Part shown: positions 26,477-50,823 of the stretch, one piece after another
How the letters are laid out: the number at the start of each line of letters is the position of its first letter
How positions within the stretch are numbered: position 1 is the first letter of the stretch
Translations under genes and position numbers: made by a program
Notes under the pieces: model-generated
Seen by the model: only the letters and a program-made list of their open reading frames with translations
Told to the model about the DNA's origin: nothing
The model's database searches: none
DNA from: Proteobacteria bacterium SG_bin7
GTDB lineage: Bacteria; Bdellovibrionota; Bdellovibrionia; Bdellovibrionales; SG-bin7
Direction: 5' to 3'
Length of the DNA stretch: 64,000 bases
Assembly: GCA_002083485.1 (NCBI GenBank)
Contig: LWDK01000044.1
Span: 12,613-76,612 of the forward strand

Positions 26477-26689
26477 TTAAATTCCTTTACGAGTCAACGC
26501 ACTGACTTCTTTGTTCTTGCGGCCCTGGCGCAAATCGCTCTTCACGACCTCACTCATTATTTTTTCCTCCAGGCCATTCCAGTATTCTTCCTCGACAGGA
26601 AGGCCTTCGTTTTTAGATAGTTTTACGGCAAGTTGCCACTGCCACTCCCAATTATCGAGCTCATTTGATGAATCATTACCTAGACTCAT
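26477..26689 (-). CDS. Small Trp/acidic-rich protein translationally coupled to the ECF sigma factor (candidate anti-sigma)
   Basis: ATGA overlap with the sigma gene stop. 70 aa with no TM segment and no HxxxCxxC motif. The call rests on position only. Confidence 0.35.
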   Translation of the reverse strand: MSLGNDSSNELDNWEWQWQLAVKLSKNEGLPVEEEYWNGLEEKIMSEVVKSDLRQGRKNKEVSALTRKGI

Positions 26690-27351
26690 TGTTCTATCCC
26701 TTCTGTGTGGCTCACGAATCCAAGGCTCGAGACCACATCTTTTCTATTAAATAAAGTTAATAAATTCTTATCCGAAATCCTACTCTTCAATTTTATTAAA
26801 GCATGACGATAATTGGCCTTTGCTGTGTCGTAGGGGCATTCCATAATCTGAGCAACTTCCTTGAAACTCAGATCTTCATACACCCGCAACACCAACGCCA
26901 TCTTCTGTCTTTCGGGAAGCTCATCAATTGCTTGATTCAAAGCCTCTTTTAAGTCCACGCCCTCTAAATCGCTCTCAGCTTCTGGCGAAACTGCGATATT
27001 AACTTTGCTAATATCGAGAGCTTCATGCCTTTTTCCCCGCAATTTATTTTTTGCAGTGTTAATTGAAATTTGAAACAACCAACTTTTAAAGGCGGCTCTT
27101 CCTTCGAAGAGATGTAGCTTCTGATATGTTTTCAAGAAAGTTTCTTGCACTACATCCTCCGCGGTTTCAAGATCTCGCACAATTCGCAAGGCCATCCGCA
27201 GAACCGATTTTTGGTATTTACGCACCAAAATCGAAAAAGCGGCTCGATCACCTTGGCGAATCCGAGCTATGATCGTTAAGTCTGAAGCGTTTTCTTCAGA
27301 ACCGATGCTTAGACCCGACTTGTCCTTAGTCGGGTTAATATCTCTTTTCAT
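26686..27351 (-). CDS. ECF-type RNA polymerase sigma-70 family factor
   Basis: Region 2 (FSILVRKYQKSVLRMALRIVRDLETAEDVVQETFLKTY) and region 4 HTH (ELPERQKMALVLRVYEDLSFKEVAQIMECPYDTAKANYRHALIKLK). Confidence 0.85.
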   Translation of the reverse strand: MKRDINPTKDKSGLSIGSEENASDLTIIARIRQGDRAAFSILVRKYQKSVLRMALRIVRDLETAEDVVQETFLKTYQKLHLFEGRAAFKSWLFQISINTAKNKLRGKRHEALDISKVNIAVSPEAESDLEGVDLKEALNQAIDELPERQKMALVLRVYEDLSFKEVAQIMECPYDTAKANYRHALIKLKSRISDKNLLTLFNRKDVVSSLGFVSHTEGIEQ

Positions 27352-29326: not shown

Positions 29327-30271
29327 TTACGAAGATTTATGTTTCGTTGTTTGATTTCTACCGTTATTTTTTGACCGATACAAAGCCTCGTCAGCAGCTT
29401 TAAATAAATCATCCCACCCGGCCATAGTTGCGCTTTTTTCAGCTACGCCTAATGAAATCGTAATAGGAAGTTTTTTACCTTCATATTCAAAAACATGGGT
29501 TTGTACCGCCTGACGAGCGCGTTCCGCAATATCGGCTCCTTGCTGTAAATTACTACCGTGGAGAATCACAACAAATTCTTCACCACCGAAGCGTGCAAAG
29601 AAATCATCGCCGCGAATCACTTTGGCTTTCACAAGGTCCGCAAGGGTTTTTAACACGTAATCTCCGGCCAAGTGCCCAAAGTTATTATTCACCTGCCTGA
29701 AGTGATCTAAATCAAACGCAATCGCCGTCAAAGGAAATTGCATTAGTCCCGATCGTTTAAATGCCTCTTTACCATGCTCCAAGAGAGCTGCCTTATTAAA
29801 TATCTGTGTGAGCCCATCGATTTGGCCACGATCATATGTGCTCTTTGTAGTCATGGATTCAATGTTACCGCTCTCTAAAAATTTAAAGATGACATTTCCA
29901 GTCTTTATCTGATCATTGTTTTTCAATTTTACCAGAGTAAGTGGTGGCACAACTCTTCCGTTAATGACAGTTTTATTTGTCGACTCTAAATCCATTATGG
30001 AAACTTCTTTTCCAGAAAACACAACCTTGGCGTGTGACTTACTAACACTTTTATCGTCGACAAACACGTGCGAGCGCGGGTCTCTACCAACAACAACGTC
30101 TCCCGCCGTAAGCGGCCACTGCTTACCAATGTAAGAATTAGGACCGACCAATAATACTAAACTCGGAGGAGCATTCGTCGCTTCAGCGAGACGACCTTTG
30201 AAGGTGTCACTCGAGATAACGCTTGTCTTATCTCCCGCTGTTATTTCGTCGTCTTTAGGATCTTCGCTCAT
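29327..30271 (-). CDS. FHA domain-GGDEF diguanylate cyclase (DgcB-like architecture)
   Basis: FHA region VVVGRDPRSHVFVDDKSVSKSHAKVVF...STNKTVINGRVV. GGDEF domain with active site RFGGEEF, I-site RGDD and the canonical base-specifying Asp (FGHLAGDYVL). Confidence 0.85.
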   Translation of the reverse strand: MSEDPKDDEITAGDKTSVISSDTFKGRLAEATNAPPSLVLLVGPNSYIGKQWPLTAGDVVVGRDPRSHVFVDDKSVSKSHAKVVFSGKEVSIMDLESTNKTVINGRVVPPLTLVKLKNNDQIKTGNVIFKFLESGNIESMTTKSTYDRGQIDGLTQIFNKAALLEHGKEAFKRSGLMQFPLTAIAFDLDHFRQVNNNFGHLAGDYVLKTLADLVKAKVIRGDDFFARFGGEEFVVILHGSNLQQGADIAERARQAVQTHVFEYEGKKLPITISLGVAEKSATMAGWDDLFKAADEALYRSKNNGRNQTTKHKSS

Positions 30272-41225: not shown

Positions 41226-41348
41226 ATATTTTTAAAAATGTAGCCATTGTGAAACCAGTGGTATCAAAAAAGCTGTTTGTTTTTTCATCATCAGTGATTT
41301 AATGGCTCCATAAAATATCGAAAATGTCCCAACTTTAGCCTTTACGCG

Positions 41349-41365
41349 TTGGCAGTGTTGTTGCT
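41349..41365 (+). promoter_or_regulatory. Sigma-54 (RpoN) -24/-12 promoter TTGGCAGtgttgTTGCT
   Basis: The GG and GC dinucleotides are spaced exactly as in TGGCAC-N5-TTGCW. It lies 108 nt upstream of the ATG at 41473. The same core occurs at 49902-49918 on the minus strand. Confidence 0.6.
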
Positions 41366-41472: not shown

Positions 41473-42357
41473 ATGAAAAGAACTCTTATTTCATTAATCG
41501 CGAGCGCAGCAGTTGCTGTTTCGCTTTCTGCTAACGCCCACGAAGGACACGGTCTTCCCGGCCCATCTGCTGGCGAAATCATTCAAACAGGAGTCAACGT
41601 CGTTGTAAACGTTGGTGACCTCGTAGTTAGTTTTGGCCAAACAGCTTTGGTTCGTTTTCCAAAGTCAGCTGCTGAAACTGCAAAAAATTTGGCAAAATGT
41701 ATTCATGACGGAATCCATGCAAATACAGCTGGCCAAGTAGTAACTACTCCAGTTCTTTGTCCGGTAACAATTGGAACTGAAGCCGCAACCGCAATCGTGC
41801 TCACTGGCCTTGCTGGTGCACAAGCAGTTGTTGCCGTTCCATCTAAATTTGCAAAAGAGATCGCTGCGATCTTTTTGAAATCCAGTAAAGAGGCGTGGGA
41901 TGCTTTGGCAAATTACAACCAAAACCCAATTTTCTGGCTTTTAAATCTTGGTGTTTGCGTTACTAACCACGTGATCGGCCGCGCTGCTCAATTAGGCGCT
42001 GCGGTGATCGATCTAGTTTCAACGACAGTTGGCGCAGTTGTAGAACTTGCCGTTGCTGGTGTTAGAACAGGCATTAAGTACGCTTCTGATGCAGTTATCA
42101 TGGTAGCTGATTGTGTTACTACTAAGGTAAAATTCCTTGGCAAAGAGCTATATGGCCTTGGCAAAGGAGTGTTGGTGTCGGCAGTAAAAGCTGGTCACCT
42201 TGATGTTAAGGGCGCTGCTCAATACTTTATGGATAACGTTGTTGCCCGCCTTGTAACTCTTCCTATTCGCATCATCACTGGTGAAGCATTAGGTACAGTG
42301 ATTGCGGGTTCATATCCAAAATACGAAGATGCTCGAGGCCCTATTTCTACTTACTAA
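41473..42357 (+). CDS. Secreted Ala/Gly/Val-rich protein of unknown family (P1)
   Basis: AAGGAG SD, signal peptide ...SLSANA|HEGHG and four Cys. C-terminal KYEDARGP resembles PYADARMG of the 316-aa protein at 47911. A/T-ending codon preference suggests high expression. Confidence 0.6.
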   Translation: MKRTLISLIASAAVAVSLSANAHEGHGLPGPSAGEIIQTGVNVVVNVGDLVVSFGQTALVRFPKSAAETAKNLAKCIHDGIHANTAGQVVTTPVLCPVTIGTEAATAIVLTGLAGAQAVVAVPSKFAKEIAAIFLKSSKEAWDALANYNQNPIFWLLNLGVCVTNHVIGRAAQLGAAVIDLVSTTVGAVVELAVAGVRTGIKYASDAVIMVADCVTTKVKFLGKELYGLGKGVLVSAVKAGHLDVKGAAQYFMDNVVARLVTLPIRIITGEALGTVIAGSYPKYEDARGPISTY

Positions 42358-44049: not shown

Positions 44050-46152
44050 TCACGCGGCGTTTCTAGAGTTCAAAAAACTACTGAGTTGAACGCCCAGTTC
44101 ATTGATATCACCTTCAGCAGTGTTAACAAGTTCACCTATATTTTCCCAAGAAAGATTTTCGGCGTGCTCGATAACGTCAAGCTTTTTACAAATGTCATTT
44201 GCAAAGAAGTTGGCGATAGTTCCACGTAACGTATGCGCTGATATTCGCAAGAGTTTGGCATCTTTTTTAGTAACAGCAGTTTGCAAATTTCCAAGAAGAT
44301 TCGGAACTGTTTTTAAATAGCCGTTTATAAATTTTATCAAAATTTCTTCGTCGCCGGCAAAATGCTGCAACAAAAGATCTTTATTCAAGTGAACTGTTTT
44401 TTGAGTCTGAACCTTATTGGTCTTGGCTTCTTCGTTAGCCATCGTTGTATTCGAACGAACCCTTAAAATCGCCTCAGCTAGGGAGATCACTGTAAAGGGT
44501 TTCGGAACAAAGTCATCCATACCGGCATCACGACAATACTTTTGATCTTTCATTGTGGCACTCGCGGTCAAAGCTATAATCCAAGGCTGTCTCTCTACCG
44601 CTAGTCGCCGTCGCAAGGTTTTAGTCGTAATATAACCATCCATTTCCGGCATCTGCCCGTCCATAAAAATAACGTCGTAAAATTTAGTATCAATGGCATC
44701 TAAGACTTCAAGTCCGTTTCCAACAGCATCCACGCGATAGCCTAGCATTTCCAGATACTGCTTTGCTAAAAGCTGGTTCGTAGAGTTATCGTCGGCAACT
44801 AAAATACTGTAGGGCTTCTTCCTGGCAAGATCTCTATCAAATTCAAAGCCATCAACCTCACCAGCATTTTTGCGATTTCCTTTTCTGGCTGAAACCTTAA
44901 ATGAAAAGGTCGTCCCAACCCCGAGCTGACTTTCAAAACCGATTGACCCGCCCATGGATTCGCAAATTCCCTTACAGATTACAAGGCCAAGACCAGTGCC
45001 ACCATATTTGCGTGTGGTCGATGCATCAACCTGAGTAAAGGATTGAAATAGCTTGTCCTTCACATCATCTGGGATGCCAATTCCAGAGTCTTTTATCGAG
45101 ACATTGATTTCAATTTTATCGTCCGATACCTCTTTAATAGAAGTAATAATGCAAACTTCTCCTTTTGGAGTAAATTTTATTGCGTTACCCACAAGATTAT
45201 TTAAAACCTGTCTTAAACGCGTTGAGTCCGTTAGAACCCAAAAGTCGTCAGGAATACTTGATTTCAGTGAGAGTCCTATTCCTTTATCTTTGGCGCGCGA
45301 GTTAAAAAGGATGATGACATCTCGTAAAAGCATATTCACGTTAAAATTAACATCTTCCAGTATTAATTTACCAGCTTCCATTTTTGAGAAATCCAAAATG
45401 TCATTTATTAAAGTTAAGAGTGTGTCTCCGCAGGTCGTCATTATATTTAAATAGTTTTTACCATCGTCTGAAAGGTTTTCTTTACGTAAGAGATTTGCCA
45501 TTCCTAAAATTCCGTTAATGGGTGTGCGAATTTCATGACTGACATTGGCAATAAACTGCGATTTGACATTCGCGGCTCGGTCGAGCTGAAGGTTTTTTTC
45601 TTTGAGCGTGTCTTCGATCTGTTCTCGCTCTAGATATTCGCGAGCTTGTGTACGGATTTGCAAAATCAAAAATAAGTAGTACGTAATAAGCATAAGTGCT
45701 AATGGCTCACCGGCAGAATGGGTTGCACTTAAAAAAAAAGGCGGTAATAACAGAAAGGTCAAAAAAAGCACCGCCCCGACAAAACTAGGAACCAAGGCTG
45801 TGAGTGCCGCTGCGGCTACCCCACAAGTCACAAGCAACAAAACTAATGTCGATGAATGTTGAATTCCATATTGATGAATTGCAAAGGAACAGAAACCACC
45901 CCATCCGAATGCAATCAAAGCCAATTGGATAAAAAATATCCGACTCTTAAAAATTCCGAAACGCAATAGTCGGGTCACATTTACAATTACAATGAGAGCA
46001 ATAAATGAGTGCGCAACTAACGGAAAATCTCTTTCAAGATCCGTAAAAAAATAAACCACGGTCGCTAGAACCATATGCCCAAAGGAACTACTGACAGCTC
46101 TTTTTGCGAGTTCTTTTTTGGATCTCGGAGAAATTGAAAAAAATGCCGACAT
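44050..46152 (-). CDS. Hybrid sensor histidine kinase / response regulator with C-terminal HPt domain
   Basis: Multi-TM N-terminus. HisKA SHEIRTPINGILGM. HATPase (DSGIGIP, GGTGLGL). REC (ILVADDNSTNQ...FMDGQMPEMDG). HPt (SAHTLRGTIANF). Confidence 0.9.
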   Translation of the reverse strand: MSAFFSISPRSKKELAKRAVSSSFGHMVLATVVYFFTDLERDFPLVAHSFIALIVIVNVTRLLRFGIFKSRIFFIQLALIAFGWGGFCSFAIHQYGIQHSSTLVLLLVTCGVAAAALTALVPSFVGAVLFLTFLLLPPFFLSATHSAGEPLALMLITYYLFLILQIRTQAREYLEREQIEDTLKEKNLQLDRAANVKSQFIANVSHEIRTPINGILGMANLLRKENLSDDGKNYLNIMTTCGDTLLTLINDILDFSKMEAGKLILEDVNFNVNMLLRDVIILFNSRAKDKGIGLSLKSSIPDDFWVLTDSTRLRQVLNNLVGNAIKFTPKGEVCIITSIKEVSDDKIEINVSIKDSGIGIPDDVKDKLFQSFTQVDASTTRKYGGTGLGLVICKGICESMGGSIGFESQLGVGTTFSFKVSARKGNRKNAGEVDGFEFDRDLARKKPYSILVADDNSTNQLLAKQYLEMLGYRVDAVGNGLEVLDAIDTKFYDVIFMDGQMPEMDGYITTKTLRRRLAVERQPWIIALTASATMKDQKYCRDAGMDDFVPKPFTVISLAEAILRVRSNTTMANEEAKTNKVQTQKTVHLNKDLLLQHFAGDEEILIKFINGYLKTVPNLLGNLQTAVTKKDAKLLRISAHTLRGTIANFFANDICKKLDVIEHAENLSWENIGELVNTAEGDINELGVQLSSFLNSRNAA

Positions 46153-47910: not shown

Positions 47911-48861
47911 TTAGTTGCTACGAGGGTCACGGTATCCTTGTGTATTGACTCCAGGAAATCGGGGGTCATAACCCATTCTTGCATCTGCATATGGAATCAC
48001 AACAGTCACCATTCCTGGTTGACCAATGTCGTTAGGCATACATCCAAGAAGAGCACCGTACACAAAGTTAGGAATAGTTTCCATAAGTTTGGAGGCTAGT
48101 GGTCCTGGCTGACTATTTCCGTCTTTATCTACGATTTTAATTTCTTTATAAGCCTCTGCTAAATCTGCACCCAGAACTGCGCGACCAAGACCTCGTATCA
48201 TATGTTGCGGAATATGTGGCAATTGAAAGGTCACATTTATAATAGCAGAAACGCGTTTTAAAATTTCTCCGCCAGCTTGCGCGAAAAGGCCAAGACCAGA
48301 AGACCCAAGGCCCAACATTGAGCTAAGTCCACCCATGAAAAAGTTTCTCGACTTCGCGGCTTTTTGCATGCTTTCTCCAGCTACCCCCAAGCCTGCTTGA
48401 GCTAAATTAACGGCATCGATATTAAGAGCATCGGCACTGTACTTAACAATGCCTTCGGTGAGATTACCAACTCCATCAGTAACATTGATGGTAGTATCGG
48501 TGATGCTTTGTAGAAAACATTCCACACGGCGCTGAAAACGAGTACCAAACTTTTTATAGTCTTCGGTGTTCAGTGGAGTTTTTGTGTCAATATTTCCGTC
48601 TTGATCTTTCAAGCCATCAAATGTTTTAAGCAGACAGCTTCCTGTACCGGTGACGTTCCACGCAATGCCTTGGTATTCGGCATTGCCTTTAGCGATTCTA
48701 ATAAAGTTATCTGGTAATTTATTAAATAGCGCGTCGCCAGTGCGTTCCAATAAGTTTCCGGGATCTTTTACTTTCGTATCATCAGGGCATCTATCTAAAG
48801 CTACGGCCAAGTTTGAAGTTAGAGAGAAGACAACTAAAGATAATGTCGCAAGACTTTTCAT
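47911..48861 (-). CDS. Secreted protein of unknown family (P3), paralogue of P2
   Basis: Signal peptide ...SNLAVA|LD. Block C76-C115 (CLLKTFDGLKDQDGNIDTKTPLNTEDYKKFGTRFQRRVEC) shares 17/40 ungapped identities with P2 C73-C112. GGAG SD. Confidence 0.6.
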   Translation of the reverse strand: MKSLATLSLVVFSLTSNLAVALDRCPDDTKVKDPGNLLERTGDALFNKLPDNFIRIAKGNAEYQGIAWNVTGTGSCLLKTFDGLKDQDGNIDTKTPLNTEDYKKFGTRFQRRVECFLQSITDTTINVTDGVGNLTEGIVKYSADALNIDAVNLAQAGLGVAGESMQKAAKSRNFFMGGLSSMLGLGSSGLGLFAQAGGEILKRVSAIINVTFQLPHIPQHMIRGLGRAVLGADLAEAYKEIKIVDKDGNSQPGPLASKLMETIPNFVYGALLGCMPNDIGQPGMVTVVIPYADARMGYDPRFPGVNTQGYRDPRSN

Positions 48862-48889
48862 AAAATCTCCATTACTGGTAGTTAATTAA

Positions 48890-48911
48890 CAGCTCCACCG
48901 AAGTGGAGCTG
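48890..48911 (-). terminator. Perfect 9-bp hairpin with UUCG tetraloop between P2 and P3 (attenuator / partial terminator)
   Basis: The minus-strand RNA is CAGCUCCAC-UUCG-GUGGAGCUG followed by UUAAUUAA. It lies 24 nt after the P2 stop and 29 nt before the P3 ATG. Confidence 0.55.
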
Positions 48912-48934
48912 TCGTTAAATACCAGAACTAAGAA

Positions 48935-49798
48935 TTAGTTCTTTTTAAGTTCAATTGAATATTGAGCTCTGTTAACGATTTCAAGAAGCTCTTTATCGTC
49001 TTCAGCAAGAAGTACGTTTGGAGCTAAGTTGAAAATGCCAGCGATAGTTGAGATTGCATCTGTAGCGGCATTGAATGGTTCGAAAGTAGCTAGCTCAGTA
49101 CCAACATAAGTCGCATTTTTAACAACGCCTTTTGAAGTTTGAACTACTAAGTGAAGGCGTTTAGCGGCTTCGATAGTAAGAGTGTATCCAGCTTCGCCGA
49201 GAACTTCAATCATAGCACCGCCGATAACACCCGCAGCTGGAGCAGCTACAAGAGGTAACGCAGGAGCCATGAATACTAAATCAGTACCACGGATAATCCA
49301 ACGCCACATTTTTGTAACTCCACCTTTGCTTTCTTCTTTAATGTGGTGACCAGCGCGTCCTACGTAGTGAAGAGCTTTTCCACCAAGAACAAGAGCTTTA
49401 ACCGCACCTGCAGTTGAATAATCCAAGAACACGAAAGCAACACCTTCAGCAGTTTGAATTACGCAAGTTGCAGTTTTTTGGAAACGTTTTGCAAACGCAA
49501 TGTACTCTTGAGCAGTAAGAGGAGAGTTAACATCGATGTTTCCGTTTTGATCTCTTTTACCATCACGAGAAGCAACAGCGCACTGAACTCCTTGAGAAGC
49601 AGTGTTCAAAACGTCTTCAACAAGTTTCATACCCAATGAAGCTTCTAATCCAGAAACTAGAACTGACTTAACAGTTACATTTTGCATCGCAGGTATTTTA
49701 GATGCATTTAGCTCAGCATTCATAGATGCAGAGTCATGAGCTAAGGCTGATGTAGCCAAAGCAATAGTTGCTACAACAGCAAATATTTGTCTTTTCAT
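48935..49798 (-). CDS. Secreted Ala/Gly/Val-rich protein of unknown family (P2)
   Basis: AAGGAG SD and signal peptide ...TSALA|HDS. Conserved Cys-bounded block shared with P3. A/T-ending codon preference suggests high expression. Confidence 0.6.
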   Translation of the reverse strand: MKRQIFAVVATIALATSALAHDSASMNAELNASKIPAMQNVTVKSVLVSGLEASLGMKLVEDVLNTASQGVQCAVASRDGKRDQNGNIDVNSPLTAQEYIAFAKRFQKTATCVIQTAEGVAFVFLDYSTAGAVKALVLGGKALHYVGRAGHHIKEESKGGVTKMWRWIIRGTDLVFMAPALPLVAAPAAGVIGGAMIEVLGEAGYTLTIEAAKRLHLVVQTSKGVVKNATYVGTELATFEPFNAATDAISTIAGIFNLAPNVLLAEDDKELLEIVNRAQYSIELKKN

Positions 49799-49845
49799 AA
49801 TTACGCTCCTTTAAAAAACGTATATATTGTTAGTAAAAATTACTT

Positions 49846-49866
49846 GGCGCGGGCCCATCCCACGCC
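49846..49866 (-). promoter_or_regulatory. GC-rich hairpin in the P2 5' leader
   Basis: The minus-strand RNA is GGCGUGGG-AUGGG-CCCGCGCC (8 bp including 1 G-U pair) followed by AAGUAAUUUUUA. It lies between the sigma-54 promoter and the SD. Confidence 0.4.
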
Positions 49867-49901
49867 ATAAAAACGAGATAACTCGATTCGGATGGTTCTT
49901 A

Positions 49902-49918
49902 AGCAAGTCTGCTGCCAA
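49902..49918 (-). promoter_or_regulatory. Sigma-54 (RpoN) -24/-12 promoter TTGGCAGcagacTTGCT
   Basis: The reverse complement of 49902-49918 reads TTGGCAGCAGACTTGCT with consensus GG/GC spacing. It lies about 104 nt upstream of the P2 ATG. The core is identical to the promoter at 41349. Confidence 0.6.
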
Positions 49919-50033
49919 TTGCCTTGGCAGTTGGTTGACGAAAATTGTCTTTTCAGACCTAAACTTTTGTAATATTTGTAGAGTTTAGCCGTCAAAACTC
50001 TAATGAGTTTGCGACATTTTTTGGAAATAAGCG

Positions 50034-50378
50034 ATGATCATTTACGAAGTCACACTCGAAATAGATTTTGAAATCATTGAAGAATTTCAAAATTGGTTGA
50101 TTGAACACGTCAACGAAATGTTGGCCACAAGATGCTTTACCTCTGCTGAAATTTTTACGGAAACGCCGAAGCTTTTACCTGCTGATGGCGCGAACAGCAG
50201 AGATTCAAATCACTTAAATCAATCTAAAGCGGTAGTTATACACTACAAAGTGGGGTCAGAAAGTGACCTAAATGAGTATTTTTTACGGCACGCTAGCCGC
50301 TTGAGGGCACCGGCAGTGCGCCAATTTGGCGCTAAATTTCGCGCCAAAAGGCGCGTTCTAAAATTGGGTCTTTCCTGA
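50034..50378 (+). CDS. DUF4286-like small protein
   Basis: MIIYEVTLEIDFEIIEEFQNWLIEHVNEMLATRCF resembles the DUF4286 N-terminal pattern (MIiYnVTv.id..i..eWl.Wm..eHip.ml.tg.F) as I recall it. Confidence 0.45.
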   Translation: MIIYEVTLEIDFEIIEEFQNWLIEHVNEMLATRCFTSAEIFTETPKLLPADGANSRDSNHLNQSKAVVIHYKVGSESDLNEYFLRHASRLRAPAVRQFGAKFRAKRRVLKLGLS

Positions 50379-50418: not shown

Positions 50419-50823
50419 ATGGAGGCTAATGTGACATTAGGTGATTTCAAAATAAATAAGGATAAAATCAATAAACTCAAAAATGAGTTATTGAAGTACA
50501 ATTCGATCGACGCTGTAAAAACAGAAGTCACGCGTCTTGCCAACGATTTTCGCAAGGTTGATTTACAGTCTAAGCTTAGCGAGCGCAATAAAGAGCGAGT
50601 CCGCAAAATCGAAACGCGTTATAATGAAGTGGTTAAAACTATCGCAAAAATTCAAAAACAGCTTGATAAAGAAATTTCTCAAGTGATCAGCTTATTCCAA
50701 AAATCACGAACAGAAGCTAAGCAGAAATTTTCTGACGTGAAAAAACGAGCGGAGAGCCACAAAGAGAATATTTCGAAAAAAATAAAGACCACTCTAAAAA
50801 AGCAAAAAAAGGGTAAGAAGTAG
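50419..50823 (+). CDS. Lys-rich coiled-coil protein, unknown function
   Basis: K/E-rich helical ORF. The GTG at 50431, 5 nt after GGAGG, may be the true start. Confidence 0.45.
   Translation: MEANVTLGDFKINKDKINKLKNELLKYNSIDAVKTEVTRLANDFRKVDLQSKLSERNKERVRKIETRYNEVVKTIAKIQKQLDKEISQVISLFQKSRTEAKQKFSDVKKRAESHKENISKKIKTTLKKQKKGKK

Follow-up and report, generated by a model that had tools for sequence, protein, structure and literature searches.

Several described systems each resemble, in part, a group of proteins encoded in the genome of Proteobacteria bacterium SG_bin7, a metagenome-assembled genome (MAG). These proteins, named P1, P2 and P3 below and all annotated as hypothetical, are encoded in a stretch of 64,000 nucleotides (contig LWDK01000044.1, positions 12,613 to 76,612), referred to as the window. 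Toxins of the ClyA family (Nhe/Hbl, AhlABC/SmhABC) have in common with them two to three paralogues of about 30 kDa leaving the cytoplasm, predicted long hairpins with a mid-chain Ala/Gly hydrophobic segment, and unequal expression of the components; the nhe operon is reported to carry a stem-loop before nheC. In contrast, no sequence or profile similarity links P1, P2 or P3 to these toxins, the fold matches fall short of significance and unrelated coiled hairpins match at least as well, and P1, P2 and P3 are set apart from that family by an invariant Cys-closed variable loop, a C-terminal acid-Arg-Gly tail and a sigma-54-type control region. By analogy, and from general knowledge, the pap/fim-type fibre operons also combine a highly expressed first gene, an intercistronic stem-loop and a lower-expressed paralogue, and the D-region of type IV pilins is likewise a hypervariable loop closed by two Cys, with conserved ends and a variable middle; however, P2 and P3 are predicted to be all-alpha, carry a signal peptidase I signal, and have no chaperone, usher or pilus-assembly gene among the scanned neighbours. 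PspA/Vipp1, a sigma-54-dependent helical-hairpin protein in E. coli, shares with them a sigma-54-type promoter and a long predicted alpha-hairpin, but PspA is cytoplasmic and has neither a signal peptide nor a Cys pair; a PspA reading was rejected for P2 and P3, which are predicted to be exported, carry the Cys pair and do not match Pfam PspA_IM30. Finally, the sap S-layer cassettes of Campylobacter fetus are comparable in that a conserved promoter, leader and signal region precedes differing paralogues across genomes (here P2, or a 339-amino-acid protein, X339, in the related locus L004) and in that the encoded proteins are fast-evolving, carry export signals and are putatively abundant; they differ in that this locus presents no evidence of within-genome switching or inversion and no sequence similarity to sap.

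The analysis indicates that P2 and P3, probably with P1, constitute a lineage-restricted superfamily of Sec-exported, largely alpha-helical proteins of a narrow uncultured Bdellovibrionales clade. The interpretation that we favour, as a possible rather than a probable one, is that P2 and P3 are the abundant major member and the minor member, respectively, of an exported, disulfide-stapled helical pair, which would co-assemble or bind a common partner as components of the envelope or the surface.

Paralogy, export signals and orphan status of P2 and P3

The genes and the blocks compared are the following:

48935..49798, minus strand: P2 gene (OQW48466.1), 287 amino acids (aa), with a signal peptide (aa 1-20), a Cys73-Cys112 loop, long predicted helices and a hydrophobic Ala/Gly/Pro segment (aa 172-201)
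47911..48861, minus strand: P3 gene (OQW48465.1), 316 aa, with a signal peptide (aa 1-21), Cys 25, 76, 115 and 274 kept in the subfamily, and a C-terminal YADARMG tail
49463..49582, minus strand: P2 Cys73-Cys112 block (CAVASRDGKRDQNGNIDVNSPLTAQEYIAFAKRFQKTATC)
48517..48636, minus strand: P3 Cys76-Cys115 block (CLLKTFDGLKDQDGNIDTKTPLNTEDYKKFGTRFQRRVEC)
41473..42357, plus strand: P1 gene (OQW48459.1), 294 aa, a probable remote paralogue with the signal peptide and Cys-loop-Cys layout of P2 and P3

On sequence comparison, P2 and P3 are real paralogues, adjacent on the minus strand, as a preliminary description of the window, made from its letters, had proposed. Indeed (i) BLASTP aligns the two proteins across about 117 residues (E=5e-12), (ii) the P2 and P3 families match each other in hhalign (97%, E=7e-11), (iii) their counterparts in the related locus L002, P2' and P3', align across 187 residues (E=9e-14), and (iv) the two Cys-bounded blocks align gap-free with equal Cys-Cys spacing and 17 identities in 40 positions, exactly as had been counted by hand. 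In 2000 shufflings of the mature P2 and P3 sequences that kept their composition, the best ungapped 40-mer reached 10.1 +/- 0.85 identities, with a maximum of 14. The explanation by chance similarity, or by open reading frames (ORFs) that are not genes, is refuted by this excess over the shuffle maximum, by orthologues that occupy syntenic positions in at least five further assemblies and by strong ribosome-binding sites, the Shine-Dalgarno sequences already pointed out being AAAGGAG ahead of P2 and GGAG ahead of P3. The overlapping plus-strand ORFs 48650..48889 and 49454..49639 were taken as spurious shadows of the P2 and P3 genes. The richness in Ala, Gly, Val and Leu that had been described was also recovered: these residues make up 47.3% of P1 (rank 1), 42.5% of P2 (rank 2) and 36.1% of P3 (rank 6) among 51 window proteins, for a window mean of 31.2 +/- 4.6%.

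P1 is a probable remote relative of P2, judged from profile comparison: hhalign relates the P1 family to the P2 family (74.5%, E=2.7e-5) with both Cys aligned, and X339 to P1 (85%, E=6.5e-6).

Both proteins carry a signal peptide, as previously described. The N-termini read MKR...SALA|HD (P2) and MKS...LAVA|LD (P3), each with a K/R-rich n-region, a hydrophobic core and an AxA site, as expected of substrates of Sec and signal peptidase I, in which a basic n-region and a hydrophobic h-region are followed by small residues at -3 and -1; all 16 aligned family members have Ala at -1, and at least 90% of them have Ala at -3. Other types of exported protein were considered and rejected. For a lipoprotein, the lipobox [LVI][ASTVI][GAS]C is missing, the first Cys of P3 following LDR, MKP or LPP in orthologues and P2 having no N-terminal Cys. 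For a type IV pilin or a flagellin, the signal is of the AxA signal peptidase I type and not of class III (G|F-x-x-x-E), and no Pfam pilin or flagellin match was obtained. For an integral membrane protein, P2 of the window is the sole family protein with a segment that passes the Kyte-Doolittle threshold, and its position is not conserved. P2 and P3 may be envelope or secreted components, as the preliminary description had proposed.

As judged from database searches, P2 and P3 are an orphan, lineage-private family. Word-indexed searches retrieved one relative of P3 (P0002, 55%) and two of P2 (P0004, 38%; P0005, 31%), and an exhaustive HMMER search of 1.84 billion representative proteins with a P2+P3 profile found six members in total, every one of them within a narrow, uncultured clade of Bdellovibrionales; the P1 family comprises ten members. 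Pfam gave no match at E<=10 for P2 and P3 and none at E<=1 for eight relatives, the best NCBIfam scores were 11.8-13.9 bits for cut-offs of 249-400, PHROGs and PADLOC returned noise only (E>=0.009), and PDB profile searches returned a designed helical repeat at E=4.8e-4 plus noise. These searches, several of which the preliminary description had suggested, bear out its view that no known family can be assigned. A scan of a genome collection with P3 patterns gave zero relatives, and no family member was found near the neighbouring glycosyltransferase (GT) gene in more distant Bdellovibrionales (GT identity <=57%), whether in five loci by ORF listing or in the loci scanned by hidden Markov models (HMM). 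The relatives of this GT at 42-90% identity are all labelled as Bdellovibrionales or Pseudobdellovibrionaceae MAGs, as are the closest syntenic genomes, so that the attribution of the host to a predator lineage was well founded. The family is carried by no cultured organism, which is a practical limit. In the literature on this MAG and on Bdellovibrio pore-forming proteins, nothing relevant was found.

Putative sigma-54 promoter, conserved leader and expression signals

The control elements found around these genes, and the corresponding motifs in related loci (designated L), are as follows:

49902..49917, minus strand: sigma-54-type -24/-12 motif TGGCAGCAGACTTGCT, 103 nucleotides (nt) upstream of the P2 ATG
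41350..41365, plus strand: sigma-54-type motif TGGCAGTGTTGTTGCT, 107 nt upstream of the P1 ATG
49845..49867, minus strand: leader hairpin (GGCGTGGG-AUGG-GCCCGCGCC) with a T-run after it, located upstream of the P2 start and downstream of the promoter motif
49802..49822, minus strand: TACG...AAAGGAG...CGTA element over the P2 Shine-Dalgarno sequence, identical in four loci
48889..48912, minus strand: intercistronic stem-loop ACAGCTCCAC-TTCG-GTGGAGCTGT, between P2 and P3
L001, 9533-9548, 9959-9974 and 19001-19016: TGGCA-N6-TTGCW sites
L002, 4405-4420; L003, 5712-5727; L004, 4824-4839; L009, 3350-3365; L090, about 533-548: TGGCA-N6-TTGCW sites

The pattern TGGCA-N6-TTGCW matches the window exactly twice, for 0.35 matches expected, and both matches lie upstream of family genes, on the right strand and in the form TGGCA-N6-TTGCT. 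In the 911 kb of the window and the related loci taken together, the strict pattern occurs 15 times, 10 of them at 26-111 nt upstream of a first family gene; L090 adds another such motif, and a motif at this place is likewise present in L002, L003, L004 and L009, so that nearly all first genes of the P1/P2/P3 family are preceded by one. In the orthologous loci the GG and GC elements are kept and the spacer varies. P3-type genes in second position carry no motif, and the stand-alone P3 of L001 has its own. To our knowledge, the targets of sigma-54 are poorly mapped in the order Bdellovibrionales. An RpoN-like factor is encoded by B. bacteriovorus (PMC3464611).

The 250 nt upstream of P2 are more conserved than P2 itself. 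The conserved promoter and leader (window 49790-50040, minus strand) precede P2 in the window, in L002 and in L003, and precede the P1-like paralogue X339 in L004 (4690-4945); on this sequence evidence, the gene body is replaced under one control region between L004 and the window. The leader hairpin, which scored as terminator-like, is found in four loci with compensatory GC<->AU changes. The TACG...CGTA element is predicted to form a putative structure by pairing, for which no covariation was seen. No Rfam family matched the leader and an exact-match metagenome scan for its 22 nt returned nothing; it may be a new cis-regulatory leader, acting as an attenuator, a stabiliser or a protein-binding site. 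Further upstream, a conserved intergenic sequence with an ACCA-N-TGGT inverted repeat is present ahead of the P1 promoter motif (window 41230-41350, plus strand) and a conserved GTAA-N3-TTAC repeat takes its place upstream of P2; either repeat could be an activator-binding site.

Codon usage had been described as apparently biased in both genes. This holds for P2, whose effective number of codons (ENC) of 38.0 is the strongest bias of 52 window genes, followed by P1 (46.9); it does not hold for P3, which is ordinary (52.3). Because of this codon bias, P2 appears to be highly expressed, with P3 as a low-abundance partner. Furthermore, the 76-nt spacer between P2 and P3, in which the intercistronic stem-loop lies, has a fold energy of -33.1 kcal/mol, and L004, L009 and, with a compensatory change, L002 each have a stem-loop or a full terminator at the equivalent place. 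Taken together, the promoter motif, the leader, the codon bias and the stem-loop would fit a sigma-54-driven operon that yields much P2 and little P3.

Co-variation of the Cys-bounded loop and the C-terminal tail

In the 16-sequence alignment of P1, P2 and P3 relatives, the two Cys of the block are the sole invariant residues of the mature proteins. This invariance is the best available argument for a disulfide between them, and the disulfide-closed loop suggested in the preliminary description is accordingly a probable feature; P3-type proteins have two further conserved Cys (25 and 274). By contrast, the notion of a conserved block did not hold across the family. The central 15 or so residues (DQxGNID..PL...Y) occur in both paralogues of this genome and in none of the orthologues of P2 or P3 from other genomes. 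More widespread are only the two Cys and, in part of the members, a weak SRD / F..R.Q motif, which P0002, P0007 and the L004 P3-like protein lack. A calcium-dependent function of P2 and P3, in which the shared block (DQ[DN]GNID) would be an EF-hand-like calcium-binding helix-loop-helix, is suggested by the string D-x-[DN]-G-x-I-D, which has predicted helices on either side and lies within the loop that the Cys pair closes, but it is very improbable: the string fits neither register of the canonical 12-residue EF-hand loop, which has acidic positions 1 and 12 and Gly at position 6, the acidic residue at position 1 or 12 being missing and Ile standing where Gly or a polar residue is needed, and Pfam gave no EF-hand match. 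Because the string is absent from every orthologue, it is not the core function of the family.

The loop varies between genomes and agrees within them. The number of residues between the two Cys ranges from 18 to 38 across the family, yet it is equal in P2 and P3 of one genome:

Window: P2, 38; P3, 38
L002: P2', 23; P3', 23
L003: P2, 23
Other relatives: P0007, 22; P0002, 19; L004 P3-like protein, 18

The L002 proteins have a common loop version of their own (SRDxQDDMxxFxxRDQxSxxC), which is 60% identical between P2' and P3', as compared with 52% for the L002 and L003 orthologues of P2 and 31% over the remaining part of P2' and P3'; both window proteins read RFQ where both L002 proteins read RDQ. 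Overall, within-genome loop identity is 42% (window) and 60% (L002), versus 23-31% for the remainder of the paralogues. Since third-codon positions of the window P2/P3 block match at 14 of 40 only, the likeness of the loops is held at the protein level.

A second co-variation links P3 to P1. The preliminary description had noted a C-terminal Y-x-DAR-(M/G) motif common to both, and a six-frame scan confirmed that P1 (42322..42339, plus strand) and P3 (47974..47991, minus strand) hold the sole two occurrences in the window. The P3 motif, Y-A-D-A-R-M, co-varies with the P1 tail across genomes:

Window: P1, YEDARG; P3, YADARMG
L001: P1, YDDARG; P3, YSDARLG
L009: P1, KPYCDVRYGRC; P3, KPYCDVRRGDC
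Sample SRR32392775 (two contigs of one sample, assumed to be the same genome): P1, ..EEERAGNSF; P3, ..QHERAGSSF

Recent gene conversion was rejected as the origin of the common loop and tail, because synonymous sites are saturated: third positions agree at 14 of 40 in the window block, and synonymous differences affect nearly every codon of the L009 tail. In L009 (4612-5445 and 8519-9421), which belongs to a more distant lineage (GT 66% identical), the P3-like and P1 tails each carry two extra Cys (CDVRxGxC), which suggests that a small C-terminal knot closed by a disulfide replaces the YxDARG tail there.

Predicted fold, competing explanations and neighbouring genes

The modelling and structure search proposed earlier for these proteins gave, with AlphaFold2 (AF2) and 16 sequences, an all-alpha model of P2 with helices at 56-77, 96-171 and 180-237, and returned no specific fold match. 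In this model the Cys pair would join the beginning of helix 96-171 to helix 56-77; the hydrophobic periodicity is mostly of the alpha type, and a helical hairpin is the predicted fold. The top Foldseek matches (HlyD, F-BAR, SmhB/AhlB/AhlC, SMC) are generic long helical hairpins.

The presence of toxin components among these matches bears on the main competing explanation, in which P1, P2 and P3 would be the two or three components of an alpha-helical toxin that forms pores or is otherwise active on membranes, in the style of ClyA, Nhe/Hbl or AhlABC/SmhABC. Once exported as soluble, elongated helical bundles, they would drive a central hydrophobic Ala/Gly-rich hairpin into prey membranes and assemble with one another. 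Each genome encodes two to three paralogues of 260-340 aa, predicted to be exported and all-alpha, which together with the fast evolution and the predatory lineage is consistent with it. So is the hydrophobic segment of P2 (aa 172-201, Kyte-Doolittle 2.04), located at the predicted turn between the two longest helices, which the best hhalign segment against E. coli ClyA, itself non-significant, pairs with ClyA 179-212, residues that we take to lie within its hydrophobic beta-tongue. We nevertheless consider this explanation unlikely. Of four P2 orthologues, a single one has that segment above the transmembrane-like threshold; when E. coli ClyA was compared with the P1, P2, P3 and superfamily profiles, the hhalign probabilities were 0.1-0.9%; the absence of any Pfam match concerns a library general enough to expect toxin models; Foldseek values for the toxin components (E 0.16-0.6, template modelling scores of 0.13-0.31) are equalled or bettered by HlyD, F-BAR and SMC hairpins; and a codon bias as extreme as that of P2 and P1 would be more usual in bulk structural proteins.

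For the tentatively favoured pair of a major P2 and a minor P3, the following sequence of events can be proposed. The sigma-54 promoter, which would need an enhancer-binding activator, would fire through the conserved structured leader. A strong Shine-Dalgarno sequence and a codon bias unequalled in the window would then make for very high translation of P2. The stem-loop after P2 would let only part of transcription reach P3, setting a major:minor ratio. Signal peptidase I would cleave both proteins at AxA, and they would become oxidised once outside the cytoplasm. There the invariant Cys pair would staple a long helix, at its beginning, to the end of another helix and close the variable loop at one end of an elongated helical hairpin. 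The loop, common to P2 and P3 of one genome, and the acid-Arg-Gly tail, common to P1 and P3 of one genome, would be genome-specific docking modules needing to match within a genome, as the small sample available suggests; through them the paralogues would co-assemble or bind one common partner. The product would be an abundant, fast-evolving envelope or surface component.

Several observations weigh against this scheme. The link of P1 to P2 is moderate (74.5%) and hhalign gives none to P3. Loop co-variation was seen in two genomes and tail co-variation in four, one of them by taking two contigs as one genome, and the P3-like protein of L004 has no tail. Most transcripts could end at the leader hairpin and its T-run, and no enhancer-binding protein signature (GAFTGA, ESELFGH, Walker A) was detected in the window or in eight loci. 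The structural models are weak, with a predicted local distance difference test (pLDDT) score of 57.5 and a predicted template modelling (pTM) score of 0.42 for P2 and a pLDDT of 30 for P3 (5 sequences), and Foldseek searches of the PDB with the P2 model gave no match at E<=0.001.

The pace of evolution at the locus is in line with the favoured scheme and also concerns another alternative. Between loci whose neighbouring GT shows 88-94% identity, the identity falls to 31-38% for P2 and 26-55% for P3, and the slot between the DUF4286 and GT genes has the following contents:

Window and L002: P2 and P3
L001: a divergent P1-like gene and P3
L004: X339, a P3-like gene, two unrelated exported paralogues and an HNH endonuclease
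L009: P1-like and P3-like genes

P2 and P3 could be soluble periplasmic housekeeping or stress proteins (helical chaperone-like, lipid- or ligand-binding), induced by sigma-54 and neither assembled nor surface-exposed. The Sec signal without a lipobox or a consistent transmembrane segment would agree with this, as would the lack of recognisable secretion-system genes among the scanned neighbours; in addition, sigma-54 regulons are generally held to answer envelope or nutrient signals often, a theme of PMC3162934. However, housekeeping proteins are usually conserved, whereas this family is confined to a small clade and diverges far faster than its neighbours; gene replacement under one conserved leader, and within-genome co-variation of loop and tail, which points to a specific partner or an arms race, also speak against a periplasmic housekeeping role, and we regard it as distinctly unlikely.

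A more far-reaching proposal, which we consider doubtful, is that P1, P2 and P3 represent a previously unseen multi-component exported alpha-helical system found in a single clade of uncultured Bdellovibrionales, either a novel type of prey-membrane-attacking complex or a new surface lattice. The disulfide-closed loop and the C-terminal tail, evolving in concert inside each genome, would let the subunits recognise one another or a shared receptor, and a sigma-54 activator would turn the system on through a new structured leader. If P2 truly ranks among the most abundant exported proteins of the clade, a predatory group would have a major component, secreted or of the envelope, that is wholly uncharacterised and unseen by family databases. 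The paired co-variations, of the loop between P2 and P3 and of the tail between P1 and P3, are testable handles for finding the binding partner, and the conserved sigma-54-type promoter with its structured leader offers a defined regulatory entry point.

Other genes were observed in the window and in the related loci. The window encodes an FHA-GGDEF diguanylate cyclase (29327-30271, minus strand), an extracytoplasmic function (ECF) sigma factor (26686-27351, minus strand) and a hybrid histidine kinase (44050-46152, minus strand), none of which is an obvious sigma-54 activator; the neighbour of the hybrid histidine kinase in L001 has an H-NOX (HNOB) domain. In L004 (6823-9941), the HNH endonuclease (Pfam E=6e-11) lies between the family genes and the GT, and the two exported paralogues (272 and 281 aa), which are 50% identical to each other, belong to no family; another unrelated exported protein, of 273 aa, is encoded in the L002 slot. 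Lastly, a DUF4286 protein (window 50034-50378, plus strand) and a Lys-rich protein of 134 aa without a Pfam family (window 50419-50823, plus strand) are encoded divergently from P2, and both keep their position in all related loci.

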